A DNA stretch of 64,000 nucleotides, from positions 400,682 through 464,681 of the forward strand of contig CAVXAH010000001.1 of the NCBI GenBank assembly GCA_963759775.1, given 5' to 3'. The DNA comes from an uncultured bacterium. GTDB lineage: Bacteria; Patescibacteriota; Minisyncoccia; Phycocordibacterales; Phycocordibacteraceae. Below, piece by piece: positions 9,535-21,451 of the stretch. The position numbers and the translations under genes are program-made. Every line of letters starts with the position of its first letter. Position 1 is the stretch's first letter. The notes below the pieces were generated by a model. The model saw only the letters and a list, made by a program, of their open reading frames with translations, was not told where the DNA came from and ran no database searches.

Positions 9535-9568
9535 AAACGCGCGACCGAAGGTCGCGCGTTTCGTTTCT
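9535..9568. terminator. rho-independent terminator after rpsG (possibly bidirectional)
   Basis: AAACGCGCGACC-GAA-GGTCGCGCGTTT followed by CGTTTCTC. Confidence 0.7.
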
Positions 9569-9574
9569 CACCAC

Positions 9575-9925
9575 TTACCGGCAGATGAGCTCGTTCTTCA
9601 ATCCTCCGAATGCTTGAAGAGTAATCCGGAGTGGTTCCCGTGTCATGCCCAGCATCGATTTCCGCTTGAGCCTGCTGCTTGGCGACTTCAAGCGACGGCA
9701 AAGCCTTGCTCGAAGATCGACGTCGTTCCAGTACGAAAGCGAGGTCTGTTGAACGCGATTTTCACCGCCAGGTCCGCTTTGTTGTAAATCCTGAAAGGTG
9801 CTGCGCTCAACTAAAACCGTCTTGGGCGCAGCCACTTCTGCAGTCTGCCCATGGTTTGTCTCCAGTTGTGTGGATACCACCAAACTTCCAGAGAAGAAGT
9901 TACCACACCGTGCCATTCTTTGCAT
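9575..9925 (-). CDS. possible small antisense-oriented gene in the rpsG-fusA spacer, probably frameshift-damaged
   Basis: 116-aa ORF with TAGAAT upstream on the minus strand, ending at the 9535-9568 hairpin. More natural-looking peptide segments ([21 protein letters not shown]..., [24 protein letters not shown]...) lie in the other two minus frames. Confidence 0.3.
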
Positions 9926-9976
9926 TTTTCCGATTCTTCGCTATTCTACGGACAACGCTTCGGCGCTTTTTATTTT

Positions 9977-9991
9977 TATAACACTATCATG
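9977..9991 (+). promoter_or_regulatory. -10-like box + 6 nt + ATG (leaderless layout) at fusA
   Basis: TATAAC 9977-9982, ACTATC, ATG 9989. An additional TTGCAT-16-TATTCT lies at 9920-9947. Confidence 0.45.
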
Positions 9992-12141
9992 AATCGCGAT
10001 TATCCACTCGAGAAAGTCCGCAACTTCGGTATCATCGCCCACATCGACGCGGGCAAGACGACCACGTCTGAGCGCATTCTCTACTACACGGGTGCTCAGC
10101 ACAAGATCGGCGAAGTGCACGAAGGTGAGACGACCACCGACTGGATGGAACAGGAGCGCGAGCGCGGTATCACTATCACCGCCGCTGCCATCACCTGCTT
10201 CTGGATCGCAGACCTACGAGACAGACAAAAAGGACGTCGCCAAGAAATACTCGTTTCAACATCATCGACACGCCAGGCCACATCGACTTCACGGCGGAAG
10301 TGAAGCGCTCGATGCGCGTGCTCGACGGCGCAGTCGTCGTGTTCGACGGCGTTGCCGGCGTTGAACCGCAGTCTGAAACCAACTGGCGCTATGCTGACGA
10401 AGCAAACGTGCCGCGCATCTGTTTCATCAACAAGCTTGACCGCACTCGGCGCATCTTTTGAGAGCTCATACGCTTCCATTCTCGATCGTCTTTCAAAGAA
10501 GGCAGTGCGCATGCAGATCCCTATCGGCGAAGAGGGGAATCTGAGGGAGTGATCGACCTTCTCAAGATGAAGGCCTACAAGTTCGAAGGCGACATGGGCG
10601 ACAATGTGATCGAGGACGAAATTCCTGCAGAACTTCTTGAGGACGCAAAGAAGTATCGCGCACGAACTCATTGAGACGCATCGTTGAGAACGATGATGCG
10701 CGATGACCGCATACCTCGAAGGCAAGGAGCCTTCACTTGAGGATCTTAAGAAAACTCTCCGCAAGGCGGTTATCGCGAACAAAATCTTCCCGGTGTTTAC
10801 CGGCTCGCTCTCAAGAACAAGGGCGTGCAGCTCGTGCTCGACGCTGTCGTCGATTACCTCCCGTCTCCTCTTGATATTCCACCCGTGAAGGGTATCAACC
10901 CAAAGACGGGTGAAGAGACTCGTGCGCCATGCATATGATGACGAGCCGTTTACTGCGCTCGCCTTCAAGCTCCAGACCGACCCATTCGTCGGTCAGCTCA
11001 CCTTCTTCCGTGTGTACTCAGGCACGATCTCAGCAGGTTCCTATGTCTACAACGCAACGACCGGCAACAAGGAGCGCGTCGGCCGCATCGTGCGCCTCCA
11101 GGCAGACAAGCGCGAAGAAGTGAAGAAGGTTTTCGCAGGAGAGATCGCAGCAGCGGTCGGACTTAAGGACACGAAGACCTCGCACACGCTCTGCGATGAA
11201 GGCGAATCCAATCATTCTTGAGTCAGATCAAATTCCCAGAACCGGTGGTGTCACTTCGCATCGAGCCGAAGACCAAGGCTGACCAGGAGAAGATGGGTAT
11301 GGCGATGCGCAAGCTCGCGGACGAAGACCCAACCTTCCGCGTTACCACTGACGAAGAAACCGGCGAGACCATCATCTCAGGCATGGGTGAGCTTCACCTC
11401 GAGATTATCGTCGACCGCATGAAGCGCGAGTTCAGCGTTGAAGCAAACGTCGGCAAGCCGCAGGTGGCATACCGCGAGACCATTCTGGGTACTGCTGAGG
11501 CAGAAGGCAAGTACATCAAGCAGACTGGCGGTAAGGGTCAGTACGGTCACGTGAAGATTCGCATGAAGCAGCTTGAGCCGCTCGATCCGGAAAAGAAGAT
11601 TCCGAAGAACGTTACTCGCGAAGACCACTTCGAGTTCATCAACAACATCAAGGGAGGTGTTATTCCGCAGGAATTCATTCCCGCAGTTGAGAAGGGTATT
11701 CGCGAAGCGATGGATCGCGGCATTCTCGCAGGCTTCCAGATGGTGGACGTTTCTGTCGAGCTTTACGACGGTTCGTACCACGATGTGGACTCGTCCGAAA
11801 TCGCCTTCAAGATCGCAGCATCCATGGCCTTCCAGGAAGCAGCGCAGAAGCGAAAGCCGGTTATCCTCGAGCCGATCATGAAAGTTGAAGTCATTGTTCC
11901 AGAGCAGTTCATGGGTGACATCACCGGCTCACTCTCTGGGAAGCGCGGCCCGATTGAAGGCATGGAAGATCGCGGTATGAACAAAGCCATCCACGCAAAG
12001 GTGCCGCTTTCTGAAATGTTCGGCTACACGACGACACTTCGCTCTATGACCGAAGGCCGCGGCTCGATGACCATGGAATTCGATCACTACGATGTTGTTC
12101 CGAAAAACGTGGCAGATGAGATAATCGCGAAAAGAAAGTAA
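9989..12141 (+). pseudogene. fusA: elongation factor G, disrupted as assembled by at least 11 single-base indels between ~10200 and 11226
   Basis: G1 motif AHIDAGKTT at the start. The full EF-G sequence can be read by hopping frames (..AAITCFW / [17 protein letters not shown] / [63 protein letters not shown] / [15 protein letters not shown]... / NPIILES / IKFPEPVVS). The C-terminal 307 aa (11218..12141) are intact. Confidence 0.9.
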
Positions 12142-12170
12142 ATCCGGCGGACGAAACCTGCCCCGTAGCC

Positions 12171-12196
12171 AAACGCCGCCTTCCGAGGCGGCGTTT
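12171..12196 (+). terminator. hairpin after fusA
   Basis: AAACGCCGCC-TTCCGA-GGCGGCGTTT. Confidence 0.55.
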
Positions 12197-12254
12197 GTGG
12201 TACTGAGGTCATCGCAAAACGTAAATAAAAGTACACAAAACGCTTGTGCACAGC

Positions 12255-12284
12255 GGCCGCCCGAAAGGGCGGCCTGTGTTTTTA
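12255..12284 (+). terminator. rho-independent terminator (second, tandem) after fusA
   Basis: GGCCGCCC-GAAA-GGGCGGCC followed by TGTGTTTTTA. Confidence 0.7.
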
Positions 12285-19835: not shown

Positions 19836-19841
19836 CTTTTT

Positions 19842-20123
19842 ATGGAACACACCACTTCTCACATTCAGTCATTTGCCGGCACCGTCGTAAAGACGGCAAT
19901 GAAAGACACGGCCACCGTCCGCGTTGACCGCTTTGTGAAGCACGCAAAGTACAAGAAGTATTTTGTGCGTTCAAAGAAATTCCTGGTTCACGATCCAGGC
20001 AACACGGCTCAAGTCGGAGACAAGGTGACGATCGTTTCGTGCCGCCCGATTTCAAAAATGAAGCGTTTCAAGCTCGCAAGCCACAAAATAATATGTTGCA
20101 GGATAAATCACTCGTCACGATAG
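19842..20123 (+). CDS. rpsQ: 30S ribosomal protein S17 (3' end uncertain; ORF runs 31 nt into rplN)
   Basis: ...FAGTVVKTAMKDTATVRVDRFVKHAKYKKYFVRSKKFLVHDPGNTAQVGDKVTIVSCRPISKMKRFKL. The tail after KLASHKII looks like read-through. Confidence 0.88.
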   Translation: MEHTTSHIQSFAGTVVKTAMKDTATVRVDRFVKHAKYKKYFVRSKKFLVHDPGNTAQVGDKVTIVSCRPISKMKRFKLASHKIICCRINHSSR

Positions 20124-20470
20124 CAGACAACTCCGGCGGTAAAATCGCCCGCGTGTTCAAGGTGCTCGGCGGTTCAAAGCGTCGTTACGCAGATATTGGC
20201 GACACGGTCGTTATCTCTATCCAAGTTGCTGAGCCCCGCAAACGCGTGAAGAAGAAAGAGGTGTACCGCGCGGTTGTGGTGCGCCAGAAAAATGCATTTC
20301 GCCGCAAAGACGGTTCCTACATCCGCTTTGATGAGAATGCGGTCGTCATCATTGAGAAAGCAAGGTAAGGAAATGGCACCGAAAGGGAACCGTGTGTTCG
20401 GTCCAGTGCCGCGCGAGCTTTCCGAGCGCGGCTGGCACGCATCATCTCGCTCGCCCCTGAAGTCGTCTAA
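20093..20470 (+). CDS. rplN: 50S ribosomal protein L14, two indels near the 3' end
   Basis: MLQDKSLVTIADNSGGKIARVFKVLGG...IRFDENAVVII in ORF 20039..20368. Continuation GNRVFGPVPRELSERGW (frame of 20274..20480) and the end IISLAPEVV* (stop 20468-20470) are each in another frame. Confidence 0.9.
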
Positions 20471-20476
20471 ACTCCT

Positions 20477-20791
20477 ATGAATACTATGCACATCAAGAAA
20501 GGCGACAAAGTGCAGGTGCTGCCGGGCAAGGACAAGGGTAAGAGTGGAGAGGTTATCCGCGCGTTTCCGCGCGAGTCGATGATCGTCATCGAGGGTGTCG
20601 CAATCGTCAAACGCCATCTCAAAGGCTCTCAGGGCCAGACGGGCCGCATTGTGGAGCGCCCACGCCCGATTCACGTCTCAAACGTCATGCTCATCGATCC
20701 AGATACAAAGAAACCGAGCCGCGTACGCATCGAGAAGCGTGATGGTGTCCGCACGCGTGTCGCTGTGAAGAGCAAGACGCCAGTCAAGTAA
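20477..20791 (+). CDS. rplX: 50S ribosomal protein L24
   Basis: MHIKKGDKVQVLPGKDKGKSGEVIRAF, KOW motif. Confidence 0.94.
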   Translation: MNTMHIKKGDKVQVLPGKDKGKSGEVIRAFPRESMIVIEGVAIVKRHLKGSQGQTGRIVERPRPIHVSNVMLIDPDTKKPSRVRIEKRDGVRTRVAVKSKTPVK

Positions 20792-20796
20792 AAAGT

Positions 20797-21368
20797 ATGA
20801 ATATCACCAAACAAAGACAGCAGCAGGCATATGACGCGCTTCGCGAGACGTTCGGGTTTACGAGTCCGATGCAATCGCCGCGTGTCGAAAAGGTAATCGT
20901 TTCCTCTGGAGTCGGCAAGAAGCGCGACAAAAAGGTCATCGAACTCATCCAGAATCGCCTCGCAAAGATCACTGGCCAGAAAGCGGCGCCGCGCGCCGCG
21001 CGTCTTTCGATTGCGTCCTTCAAGGTGCGCGAAGGAGACACGGTTGGGCTTCAGGTGACGCTTCGCGGCCCGCGTATGTTCGACTTCCTCGACAAATTCG
21101 TCCACATCGCGCTCCCTCGAACTCGCGACTTCCGCGGTCTTTCAGCACGCGCCATCGACGAGATGGGAAACTCACGGTTGGTATTCGCGAGCACACCATC
21201 TTCCCAGAGACGAGTGACGAGGACATTAAGGATGTCTTTGGCTTCGCGATAACGATCGTGACGACCGCAAAGGATAAGAAAGCGGCAGAAGCGTTCTTCC
21301 GTCATCTCGGCCTCCCACTTCGCGCCCTCCCTGACGCCAAGAAGGTTGACCGAGCAGTAAAACGCTGA
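20797..21368 (+). CDS. rplE: 50S ribosomal protein L5, one indel near 21170
   Basis: ...SPMQSPRVEKVIVSSGVG...LDKFVHIALPRTRDFRGL.... After the shift the natural C-terminus reads FTVGIREHTIFPETSDEDIKDVFGFAITIVTTAKDKKAAEAFFRHLGLPL..., stop 21366-21368. Confidence 0.9.
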
Positions 21369-21423
21369 TAATGTCTACGCACGCTCTTCCAGGGCTTTAT
21401 TTTTTACTTCCAAACGAGGGAGT

Positions 21424-21451
21424 GAAAAAAGAAGGTTTCCCTTCTTTTTTC
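21424..21451. terminator. A/T-flanked hairpin between rplE and rpsN
   Basis: GAAAAAAGAAGG-TTTC-CCTTCTTTTTTC. Confidence 0.6.

Follow-up and report, generated by a model that had tools for sequence, protein, structure and literature searches.

A str–S10–spc ribosomal-protein cluster apparently divided into short transcription units in a Paceibacteria-type bacterium

Introduction

The strings of genes running from rplC to rpsQ and from rplN to rpmJ are among the most conserved operon layouts of bacteria, and they form a marker block for placing genomes of the candidate phyla radiation (CPR). In Escherichia coli the str, S10 and spc operons that hold them break at the tufA/rpsJ and rpsQ/rplN junctions, and the S10 leader is subject to attenuation controlled by L4, with a hairpin and a U-run located just upstream of the first gene. 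In archaea the gene for EF-1alpha (tuf) is linked to the S10 gene, and the genes for L3, L4, L23 and L2 open the next unit. The stretch of DNA considered here (the window, 64,000 nt of contig CAVXAH010000001.1 in assembly GCA_963759775.1, from an uncultured bacterium) carries on its plus strand, at 8.6–25.4 kb, a translation-gene cluster in which the str–S10–spc supercluster would form a chain of seven short transcription units, not two or three long operons; on sequence grounds we give this layout a probability of about 0.7.

With E. coli the cluster shares the genes and their order, a sigma-70 promoter and a leader for each unit, and intrinsic terminators between operons. It differs in the points of division, since the clade keeps tuf and rpsJ joined and breaks at rpsG/fusA, fusA/tuf, rpsJ/rplC, rplB/rpsS and rplE/rpsZ; its leader, moreover, precedes rplC and not rpsJ, and matches no ribosomal leader of Rfam. 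The archaeal layout is resembled in the co-transcription of tuf with rpsJ and in the separate unit headed by rplC, both proposed for the clade, whereas the promoters and terminators of the clade are bacterial, and the breaks at rplB/rpsS and rplE/rpsZ are, to our knowledge, not an archaeal feature.

Gene insertions in Gammaproteobacteria and Bacilli are known to enter the cluster between operons (PMC8046335). There, as in the clade described here, foreign genes arrive between operons, and insertion both marks and relaxes the operon boundaries; theirs lie between the classical operons, whereas the CPR hot spots lie inside what are elsewhere the str, S10 and spc operons. As for leaders, in the Bacillus subtilis L20/infC and L10(L12)4/rplJL systems a ribosomal protein encoded by the operon controls a terminator in its own leader (PMC1865079, PMC4538822), and the rimP-leader and rpsL-leaders consist of a short conserved terminator hairpin and a U-stretch with no visible antiterminator (Naville and Gautheret 2010, PMC2965389), for which binding of NusA or of a ribosomal protein to the leader hairpin was proposed by the same authors (PMC2965389).

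The components of the system presented below, promoters and terminators, are ordinary; what is unusual is the clade-wide re-partition of str, S10 and spc, whose fixed break points are at the same time hot spots of insertion, and the promoter-proximal hairpin module and the rplC leader add to it. No description of such a re-partition of the cluster was found in the open-access full-text literature, and for this conserved operon layout it seems to be undescribed.

Gene order and proposed transcription units

By its L2 protein the window bacterium is of the Parcubacteria/Paceibacteria type of CPR. The identity of this protein to any species-representative genome is at most 67%, with top matches to metagenome-assembled genomes of Candidatus Kaiserbacteria, Paceibacterota and Minisyncoccia, and it reaches 80–84% against short metagenome contigs; an exact-protein look-up gave no identical L2 protein on record. 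For comparison, the same genes were located in 160 loci, 30 of which are of Paceibacteria-type CPR (L001–L016 and L081–L094); the closest relatives of the window are L081 and L082.

The genes on the plus strand are ordered rpsL, rpsG, fusA, a small gene, tuf, rpsJ, rplC, rplD, rplW, rplB, rpsS, rplV, rpsC, rplP, rpmC, rpsQ, rplN, rplX, rplE, rpsZ (S14), rpsH, rplF, rplR, rpsE, rplO and secY. The L30 gene is absent between rpsE and rplO, a lack reported previously for CPR bacteria (PMC9297842). The proposed units are as follows.

8624–9510, plus strand: unit 1, rpsL (8624–9031) and rpsG (9046–9510)
9989–12141, plus strand: unit 2, fusA, with its ATG at 9989 and its frame broken by frameshifts
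12308–12697, plus strand: unit 3, a cargo gene for a DUF805 membrane protein (Pfam PF05656, E 8.8e-21; coding score 0.19)
12846–14459, plus strand: unit 4, tuf (12846–14051) and rpsJ (14073–14459), 21 nt apart
14778–17434, plus strand: unit 5, rplC–rplD–rplW–rplB, with gaps of 6–14 nt
17628–18299, plus strand: start of unit 6, rpsS (17628–17978) and rplV (17982–18299)
18455–21368, plus strand: remainder of unit 6, rpsC–rplP–rpmC–rpsQ–rplN–rplX–rplE, tightly packed
21485–24177, plus strand: start of unit 7, rpsZ–rpsH–rplF–rplR–rpsE–rplO, continuing into secY

Each unit would open at a sigma-70-type promoter (TTGCAT or TTGACN, a spacer of 16–17 nt, TAnnnT), and most would close at an intrinsic terminator composed of an A-tract, a GC stem and a U-tract and able to work in both directions. 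RNA polymerase would thus halt and restart at the junctions, with termination probably only partial, and the junctions, as transcriptionally neutral sites, would have become landing places for new genes. The degree of termination, the activity of the promoters and the function of the leaders we infer from the sequence; the division into units is well supported at five junctions, rpsG/fusA, fusA/tuf, rpsJ/rplC, rplB/rpsS and rplE/rpsZ.

The junctions in the window and in related genomes

The gaps at the six junctions that a preliminary description of this DNA had singled out are indeed enlarged, measuring 478 nt at rpsG/fusA, 704 at fusA/tuf, 318 at rpsJ/rplC, 193 at rplB/rpsS, 155 at rplV/rpsC and 116 at rplE/rpsZ; the range is therefore 116–704 nt and not the 150–480 nt given there, and the DUF805 gene within the fusA/tuf gap had been overlooked. 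Its statement that most bacteria have short gaps at these places agrees with the medians of 9–61 nt found for the same junctions in non-CPR loci (58–118 loci per junction). Gap lengths in related CPR genomes, a comparison it had suggested, show the same five junctions expanded in the 30 Paceibacteria-type loci.

rplB/rpsS: CPR median 579 nt, non-CPR median 15 nt
rplE/rpsZ: CPR median 707 nt, non-CPR median 15 nt
fusA/tuf: CPR median 890 nt, non-CPR median 51 nt
rpsG/fusA: CPR median 599 nt, non-CPR median 58 nt
rpsJ/rplC: CPR median 101 nt, non-CPR median 61 nt, with more than 300 nt in 5 of 17 CPR loci

At rplB/rpsS the gap exceeds 100 nt in 19/23 CPR loci versus 6/118 non-CPR loci, and 300 nt in 15/23 versus 0/118. 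Gaps within the units of the CPR loci have medians of 4–28 nt, except at rplR/rpsE, where the gene boundaries are unreliable.

The expanded junctions of the relatives carry unrelated cargo genes: 87 of the 93 open reading frames (ORFs) found there are unrelated to any other gap ORF, and Pfam matches include a MazE/MazF pair, an IS200-type transposase, a diacylglycerol kinase, a pilin-type protein, a deaminase, a reverse transcriptase, a response regulator, L10 and an NTP-transferase (nucleotidyl transferase). Some gap genes are encoded on the opposite strand; L082 and L083 have a homologous pair of this kind. Since insertions mark the regions between operons (PMC8046335), the CPR junctions with cargo can be considered operon boundaries in this clade.

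The transcription signals at the junctions are conserved across the relatives by position, not by sequence. In 21 of 27 relatives rplB has a terminator behind it, as scored by a detector that accepts a hairpin within 110 nt past the rplB stop and gives a positive call for 13.5% of windows drawn at random from these loci (P ~7e-14); the sequences of these terminators all differ, while the form of A-tract, stem and U-tract is kept. After rpsJ a terminator is present in 8 of the 12 relatives having a long gap. The promoter pattern TTGAC-N16-18-TAnnnT precedes rpsS in 20/24 loci, and the last 47 nt before rpsS are 82–87% identical in L081 and L082 despite gaps of 201 and 2258 nt with otherwise unrelated contents. 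The rplC leader motif described below occurs in 11 loci, each with TTG(C)NN-N16-17-TAnnnT upstream of it, in seven of them as TTGCAT. Before fusA, L009 carries the same TTGCAT-16-TATTCT as the window, plus a hairpin and TTTTTAATT; before tuf, L003 carries TTGCGC-17-TATATT; and promoters of the TTGCAT/TTGCAC type precede rpsL in L003, L009, L013, L015 and L089. The tuf/rpsJ junction, an operon boundary in E. coli, served as a negative control: its gap is 21 nt in the window, and in the relatives it shows a terminator in 3/18 and a promoter in 2/18. Of the earlier proposal that the cluster is cut into separate units, five junctions thus stand, by their expanded gaps, cargo and conserved terminators or promoters in relatives, and rplV/rpsC falls.

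The gaps of the window were also compared with the 160 loci and the window itself by tblastx and blastn, and only the last 47 nt before rpsS proved conserved. Otherwise a marginal tblastx hit of the rpsG/fusA gap to one non-CPR locus (E 0.001) and weak blastn matches (E at least 0.002), mostly of generic terminator hairpins to each other, were obtained, and no dispersed repeats among the gaps were found in the window or the 160 loci. The spacers between terminators and promoters are neither conserved nor structured, as exemplified by one of them.

9569–9919, no strand assigned: spacer of 351 nt from the rpsG terminator to the fusA promoter, non-coding in appearance (fold z −1.15)

An antisense ORF at 9575–9925 was considered as a convergent gene that would explain a bidirectional hairpin after rpsG and was discarded, having no Pfam match and a codon score of −0.07, like known spurious antisense ORFs; the small ORFs 14548–14712 and 14627–14818 were likewise discarded (no Pfam match, negative codon scores).

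Predicted terminators and promoters in the window

All eight hairpins proposed earlier are present at the positions claimed. Each was folded alone, and its z-score was derived from 200 shuffles.

9535–68, no strand assigned: bidirectional terminator-like hairpin after rpsG (−21.5 kcal/mol, z −4.0)
12171–96, no strand assigned: first terminator after fusA (−22.9 kcal/mol, z −4.9)
12255–84, plus strand: second terminator after fusA (−24.7 kcal/mol, z −4.1)
about 14479–508, no strand assigned: terminator after rpsJ (−21.8 kcal/mol, z −5.2)
14615–50, plus strand: second terminator after rpsJ (−21.8 kcal/mol, z −5.3)
about 17436–67, no strand assigned: bidirectional terminator after rplB (−20.6 kcal/mol, z −4.7)
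18333–61: stem between rplV and rpsC, without a T-run (−22.9 kcal/mol, z −4.8)
about 21424–51: hairpin after rplE (−17.3 kcal/mol, z −2.1, weak)

Seven of them reach z ≤ −4, and for these seven none of the 200 shuffles folds as stably; the exception is the hairpin after rplE. The succession of A-tract, GC stem and T-tract is seen in six of the eight, and it also marks further gene ends of the window, e.g., at 28258, 30043, 47112 and 48279. By our own ORF map, 13 of 18 perfect-stem terminator-like sites fall within the intergenic 12.6% of the window, and a generic terminator scan of 8–26 kb gave 43 sites versus 23.4 +/- 4.9 in shuffles. The U-tract is intact at 12255 (TGTGTTTTTA), 14615 (TTTTTGT), 17437 (TTTTTGTTT) and 21424, and absent at 18333. 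The terminator after rplB resembles, below threshold, the terminator part of several small RNA (sRNA) and leader models of Rfam.

The three promoters claimed earlier, at 9920, 14670 and 17562, are present as written. Together with three more they form a set of −35/−10 pairs spaced by 16–18 nt, at 8485, 9920, 12701, 14670, 17562 and 21346, three of which have TTGCAT and not TTGACA.

8485–8513, plus strand: rpsL promoter TTGCAT-17-TATAGT (score 11/12), followed by a leader hairpin at 8521–8536 and a U-run
9920–9947, plus strand: fusA promoter TTGCAT-16-TATTCT, with a weak UUCG hairpin at 9956–9965, a U-run and the ATG at 9989
12701–12729, plus strand: candidate tuf promoter TTGCGC-17-TACATT, with a leader of 116 nt
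12752–12792 and 12796–12811, plus strand: hairpins of the tuf leader, the second with TTTATTTAA
14670–14698, plus strand: rplC promoter TTGCAT-17-TACAGT
17562–17590, plus strand: rpsS promoter TTGACG-17-TATGTT, with the leader hairpin CCCGCTTCGCGGG at 17599–17611, then TTTTCATTTT and the ATG at 17628
21346–21374, plus strand: rpsZ promoter TTGACC-17-TAATGT, overlapping the rplE stop

Scored out of 12 against TTGACA or TTGCAT plus TATAAT on both strands, the sites 9920, 14670 and 17562 are among just 11 that score at least 9. The exact pattern TTGAC-N18-TANNNT occurs in the 64 kb only twice, at the rpsS and rpsZ promoters.

Several observations weigh against the chain of short units. A plain TTGACA/TATAAT scan shows no enrichment (5 sites versus 7.4 expected) and passes only 17562 of the three claimed promoters; the −35 boxes of fusA and rplC match TTGACA at 3/6 positions, and their standing as promoters rests on the recurrence and conservation of TTGCAT. 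The U-tracts at 9535 (GTTTCGTTTC), 12171 (TTTGTGG) and 14479 (TTTTGTCTT) are interrupted, and no terminator lies ahead of the promoter at rplE/rpsZ. A promoter followed at once by a hairpin and a U-run, an arrangement discussed below, would end its own transcripts too, so that such signals are not plain on/off switches. The comparison loci are all ribosomal-protein regions of metagenome-assembled genomes. Intrinsic terminators are frequently leaky, and as ribosomal proteins need balanced synthesis, it is possible that read-through is substantial, yielding one long transcript with staircase levels.

Alternative explanations

This last thought can be extended to a reading in which one or a few long polycistronic transcripts cover the cluster, the hairpins being leaky attenuators, processing sites or 3′-end stabilisers that set stoichiometry, and the promoter-like boxes being minor. 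The need for co-ordinated synthesis of ribosomal proteins, the imperfect U-tracts and the promoters with a hairpin and U-run of their own, from which it follows that hairpins need not be full stops, speak in its favour, as do the staircase sub-operons of the genome-reduced Mycoplasma pneumoniae (PMC4920955). We nevertheless regard it as unlikely, since the gaps of relatives hold unrelated cargo, including genes on the opposite strand, since TTGAC-17-TAnnnT is near-universal before rpsS, beyond chance, and since the spacers between terminators and promoters lack conservation and structure.

Far less probable is the explanation that the gaps and hairpins were left behind by small mobile elements or repeats of the miniature inverted-repeat transposable element (MITE) or repetitive extragenic palindromic (REP) kind, scattered into the cluster with no role in transcription. 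The insertion between rplV and rpsC, with its terminal inverted repeats, its ATGAC flanks, its fold at z −7.35 and its absence from L082, is just such a case, and the element at 14543–14612 is compactly structured too; the other hairpins, by contrast, are not repeated in the window or the 160 loci, immediately follow stop codons in almost every relative while differing in sequence, and have the A-tract, stem and U-tract of terminators. Slighter still is the chance that the gaps are an artefact of poor assembly, that is, coding sequence broken by indels as in fusA and tuf. About 25 frameshifts in fusA, tuf, rpsJ, rplN, rplE and rplR lend it some colour, against which stand the full length of the flanking genes (L22 with 105 versus 106 aa, L2 with 282 aa), gap codon scores typical of non-coding DNA, the lack of any tblastx match of a gap frame to CPR relatives except in the conserved rpsS leader, and the same architecture in independent assemblies.

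The frameshifts themselves number 10–11 in fusA, 8–9 in tuf, two in rplN, one each in rplE and rplR and at least one in rpsJ (positions 10205–11223, all in fusA, 12957–13667, 14387, 20363, 20436, 21172 and 23026). They are mostly insertions of 1 nt, lie outside homopolymers and partly compensate each other; tuf has the same frame at its start and end and a length that is a multiple of three. The corrected proteins are highly similar to those of relatives, and the rest of the window consists of long intact ORFs. The frameshifts probably reflect an artefact of consensus calling or polishing, concentrated in the genes of highest conservation, and not pseudogenes. The gaps are unaffected by it, as the genes flanking them are complete, the gaps are without convincing coding signal or homology, and the layout is shared by independent assemblies.

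The rplC leader

The region between the rplC promoter and its gene contains a candidate cis-regulatory RNA.

14670–14777, plus strand: rplC leader including the promoter, with the P1 hairpin GTCCCTTCGGGGAC at 14713–14726 and ACCAATGG at 14725–14732
14755–14769, plus strand: 3′ hairpin GCGCTCTTGTAGCGC of the leader, then ATTTTTTA adjoining the ATG

In 11 loci the elements come in a common order: promoter, CGCUAMGUC, a P1 stem of variable length, GACCAAUGG, a linker, and a terminator-like hairpin with a U-run, which in most of the 11 lies beside the ATG. The stretch ACCAATGG is invariant in nine aligned leaders, with variants in L003 and L011. Covariation of P1 was read directly from the sequences (GTCCC/GGGAC, GTCGGCC/GGCCGAC, GTCCGCC/GGCGGAC, GTCCCTCCCC/GGGGAGGGAC); RNAalifold, applied to MAFFT alignments of the rpsS and rplC leaders, returned no consensus pairs, the stems being out of register and the loops variable. 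In seven relatives, and not in the window copy, the terminator loop is complementary to CAAUGG(UA) or to the shifted TGGTA, GGTAT or ATGGGC, which suggests a pseudoknot. A CGCUA/UAGCG antiterminator pairing was considered for the window leader and abandoned, as it was not found in L001 and L009.

By analogy with the L4-controlled S10 leader of E. coli and with the L20 and L10 leaders of B. subtilis, the rplC leader is a candidate autoregulatory attenuator of the L3–L4–L23–L2 unit. The B. subtilis leaders provide a model for such an attenuator, with no homology of sequence or structure; the arrangement CGCUAMGUC, P1 and GACCAAUGG with a loop complementary to CAAUGG does not resemble them. At gathering thresholds Rfam recognised in the whole window only a tRNA-Ser and no ribosomal leader, and a permissive scan of 8400–22000 yielded nothing but sub-threshold resemblance to the terminator portion of unrelated models for sRNAs and leaders. 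When the 23S rRNA of E. coli, which is not the clade's own rRNA, was searched for mimicry of GACCAAUGG, it gave one match with a single mismatch, to GACCAATGG, versus 1.07 expected, i.e., the level of chance.

Two further occurrences of the motif should be mentioned. The leader of groES–groEL (44488–44700), after TTGCGC-17-TATATT, holds CTTCGGGGACGAATGGC, a 16/17 match to the core CTTCGGGGACCAATGGC of the rplC leader, for which the estimated chance expectation is ~4e-4 in 128 kb; several strong hairpins are present there too, and a CIRCE-like reading was dismissed for its wrong spacing. In three Clostridia loci (L056 at 8618, L114 at 996 and L116 at 985) the motif core GGACCAATGG also turns up within rplC itself, ~390 nt into the coding sequence, probably by coincidence.

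Promoter-proximal hairpins

In the relatives the first element past the rpsS promoter is a short GC hairpin followed by a U-run, starting 5–9 nt past the −10 box; it keeps its distance to the promoter, whereas that to the ATG varies from 18 to 126 nt. The stems vary and stay complementary (CCCGC/GCGGG, AGCTC/GAGCT, GAGCC/GGCTC, AACGCC/GGCGTT, TTGCCG/CGGCAA, AGCCC/GGGCT). In the window the same module follows the rpsL, fusA (weakly), rpsZ and ndk promoters. The last of these lies at 27252–27330, where TTGCGG-17-TATACT, the hairpin AACGCC-CCA-GGCGTT and a U-run precede the ATG of the nucleoside diphosphate kinase gene; the module is thus not confined to ribosomal-protein genes. It accompanies 29 of 126 promoter-like sites in CPR loci (23%), versus 0.8% when the downstream sequence is shuffled and 7/188 (3.7%) in non-CPR loci. 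At least four T in the 7 nt after such hairpins are found in 71% of the CPR cases versus 24% of the non-CPR cases, from which it follows that the U-run belongs to the module.

The nearest precedents are the rimP- and rpsL-leaders, likewise terminator-only leaders upstream of genes for transcription and translation, rpsL included. The CPR hairpin differs in its start only 5–9 nt past the −10 box, right at the 5′ terminus of the RNA, in its presence before many units (rpsL, fusA, rpsS, rpsZ and ndk), and in having no fixed sequence (stems CCCGC, AGCUC, GAGCC, ACGCC, UGCCG). Its geometry fits either a leaky attenuator or a stabiliser of the 5′ end. It is possible, if rather doubtful, that Paceibacteria-type CPR control their translation genes largely by promoter-proximal attenuation, nearly every unit of the cluster opening with such a hairpin and U-run, so that the splitting of the cluster would represent regulatory design and not operon decay, with the rplC leader, pseudoknotted to its terminator loop, as the lineage-specific counterpart of the L4-controlled S10 attenuator of E. 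coli; read-through would then be set by the NTP level, Nus factors or ribosomal proteins.

The rplE/rpsZ and rplV/rpsC junctions

The hairpin after rplE had been taken for the end signal of a unit. The junction is expanded in relatives, which agrees with a unit boundary there, but the hairpins lie downstream of the rpsZ promoter; because this promoter overlaps the rplE stop, they are part of the rpsZ leader.

21346–21484, plus strand: region of the rpsZ leader hairpins, GCUCUUCCAGGGC at 21383–21395 with a U-run and a second one at about 21423–21452 with a U-run

They could still stop incoming transcripts, though they do not make up a pair of terminator and then promoter. The succession of promoter, hairpin and U-run before rpsZ is found also in L002, L006, L011 and L087, and L001 and L093 have the hairpin and U-run with a promoter match that is weak at most. 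In addition, L001, L002 and L093 share a longer rpsZ leader (~100 nt before rpsZ), with the GCCUCGUAGGGGG hairpin, a U-run and then GGCCACG and GAUGCARGG, which may be a second leader motif, not common to the window.

The 13-bp stem between rplV and rpsC, also put forward as a terminator, did not hold: without a U-tract or a promoter, it is the internal palindrome of a private insertion.

18312–18454, plus strand (region 18307–18459): insertion of 143 nt, holding the palindrome 18333–18361

The insertion is bounded by imperfect inverted repeats of ~20 nt, CCGACACACTACAAAGGCG and the reverse complement ACCCGTCACACTAAAAGGCG, and ATGAC flanks it on both sides. The whole gap of 155 nt folds as one closed structure (−65.9 kcal/mol, z −7.35). 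It is private to the window, as the relatives have a median of 16 nt here and the empty site of L082 reads TAA-TTTTTT-ATGACAC; further copies of the insertion were not found in the 64-kb window or the 160 loci. A lost C-terminal extension of L22 was rejected as the source of the gap, since L22 is complete (105 aa versus 106 aa in L082) and no gap frame resembles the lysine-rich tails of other relatives. An ORF of 45 codons (18307–18444) runs through the insertion from the duplicated ATG, where the original start context is kept, and ends 10 nt before the rpsC ATG; its codon score is ambiguous and the chance probability of such an open frame is ~0.12. Its position suggests that its translation may keep rpsC coupled despite the structure. 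The gap is thus a lineage-private insertion at the rpsC start codon and no unit boundary. In its length of 143 nt, terminal inverted repeats, ATGAC direct repeat, long hairpin and lack of clear coding beyond the 45-codon ORF it is like miniature inverted-repeat elements; unlike them, it is present in a single copy in the 64 kb and in none of the 160 loci, and its parent transposon is not known.

Other features of the window

The second terminator after fusA is part of a diverged tandem copy that comprises the last eight fusA codons and the terminator (12203–12284); over 12185–12290 versus 12100–12200 the identity is 74%. This duplication of the fusA tail (12118–12196 / 12203–12284) has the look of a scar left when the DUF805 gene came to lie between fusA and tuf. 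The start of the DUF805 gene is 6 nt past a TATACT box just beyond the second fusA terminator (12290–12310), and its mRNA may be leaderless. The segment between the two terminators after rpsJ is structured as well.

14534–14650, plus strand: TATAAT box (14534–14539), a structure of 70 nt (14543–14612) and the terminator (14615–14650)

The 70-nt fold has z −4.4, and with the terminator (113 nt) z −6.4; it may be a small structured RNA unit ended by the second terminator after rpsJ. No Rfam family matches it, and the relatives compared lack a conserved counterpart.

Upstream of rpsL, at 3857–8477, lie genes for large proteins, two of which were tested, neither with a Pfam match; rpoB–rpoC were not found in this upstream part of the window, so that the usual rpoBC–str linkage is absent too. 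The 25 nt around the start codons of tuf and rpsJ (12827–12851 and 14054–14078) are 80% identical, AATTA.T.A.TCGTATGGCA, and the start regions in the cluster are AU-rich and without a Shine-Dalgarno sequence.

Significance

A clade-wide re-partition at fixed points means that the layout of the str–S10–spc cluster is less constrained than has been assumed. Each piece would have its own promoter, leader and terminator, with foreign genes repeatedly parked at the joints. Distance- or synteny-based operon predictors will mis-call such regions, and a gene's position within the ribosomal block of a CPR genome should not be taken to imply co-transcription with the block. The cluster also yields a promoter and terminator consensus for organisms with almost no transcription data, and candidate cis-regulatory RNAs, the rplC leader and the 5′ hairpin with its U-run, in bacteria that have very few transcription factors.

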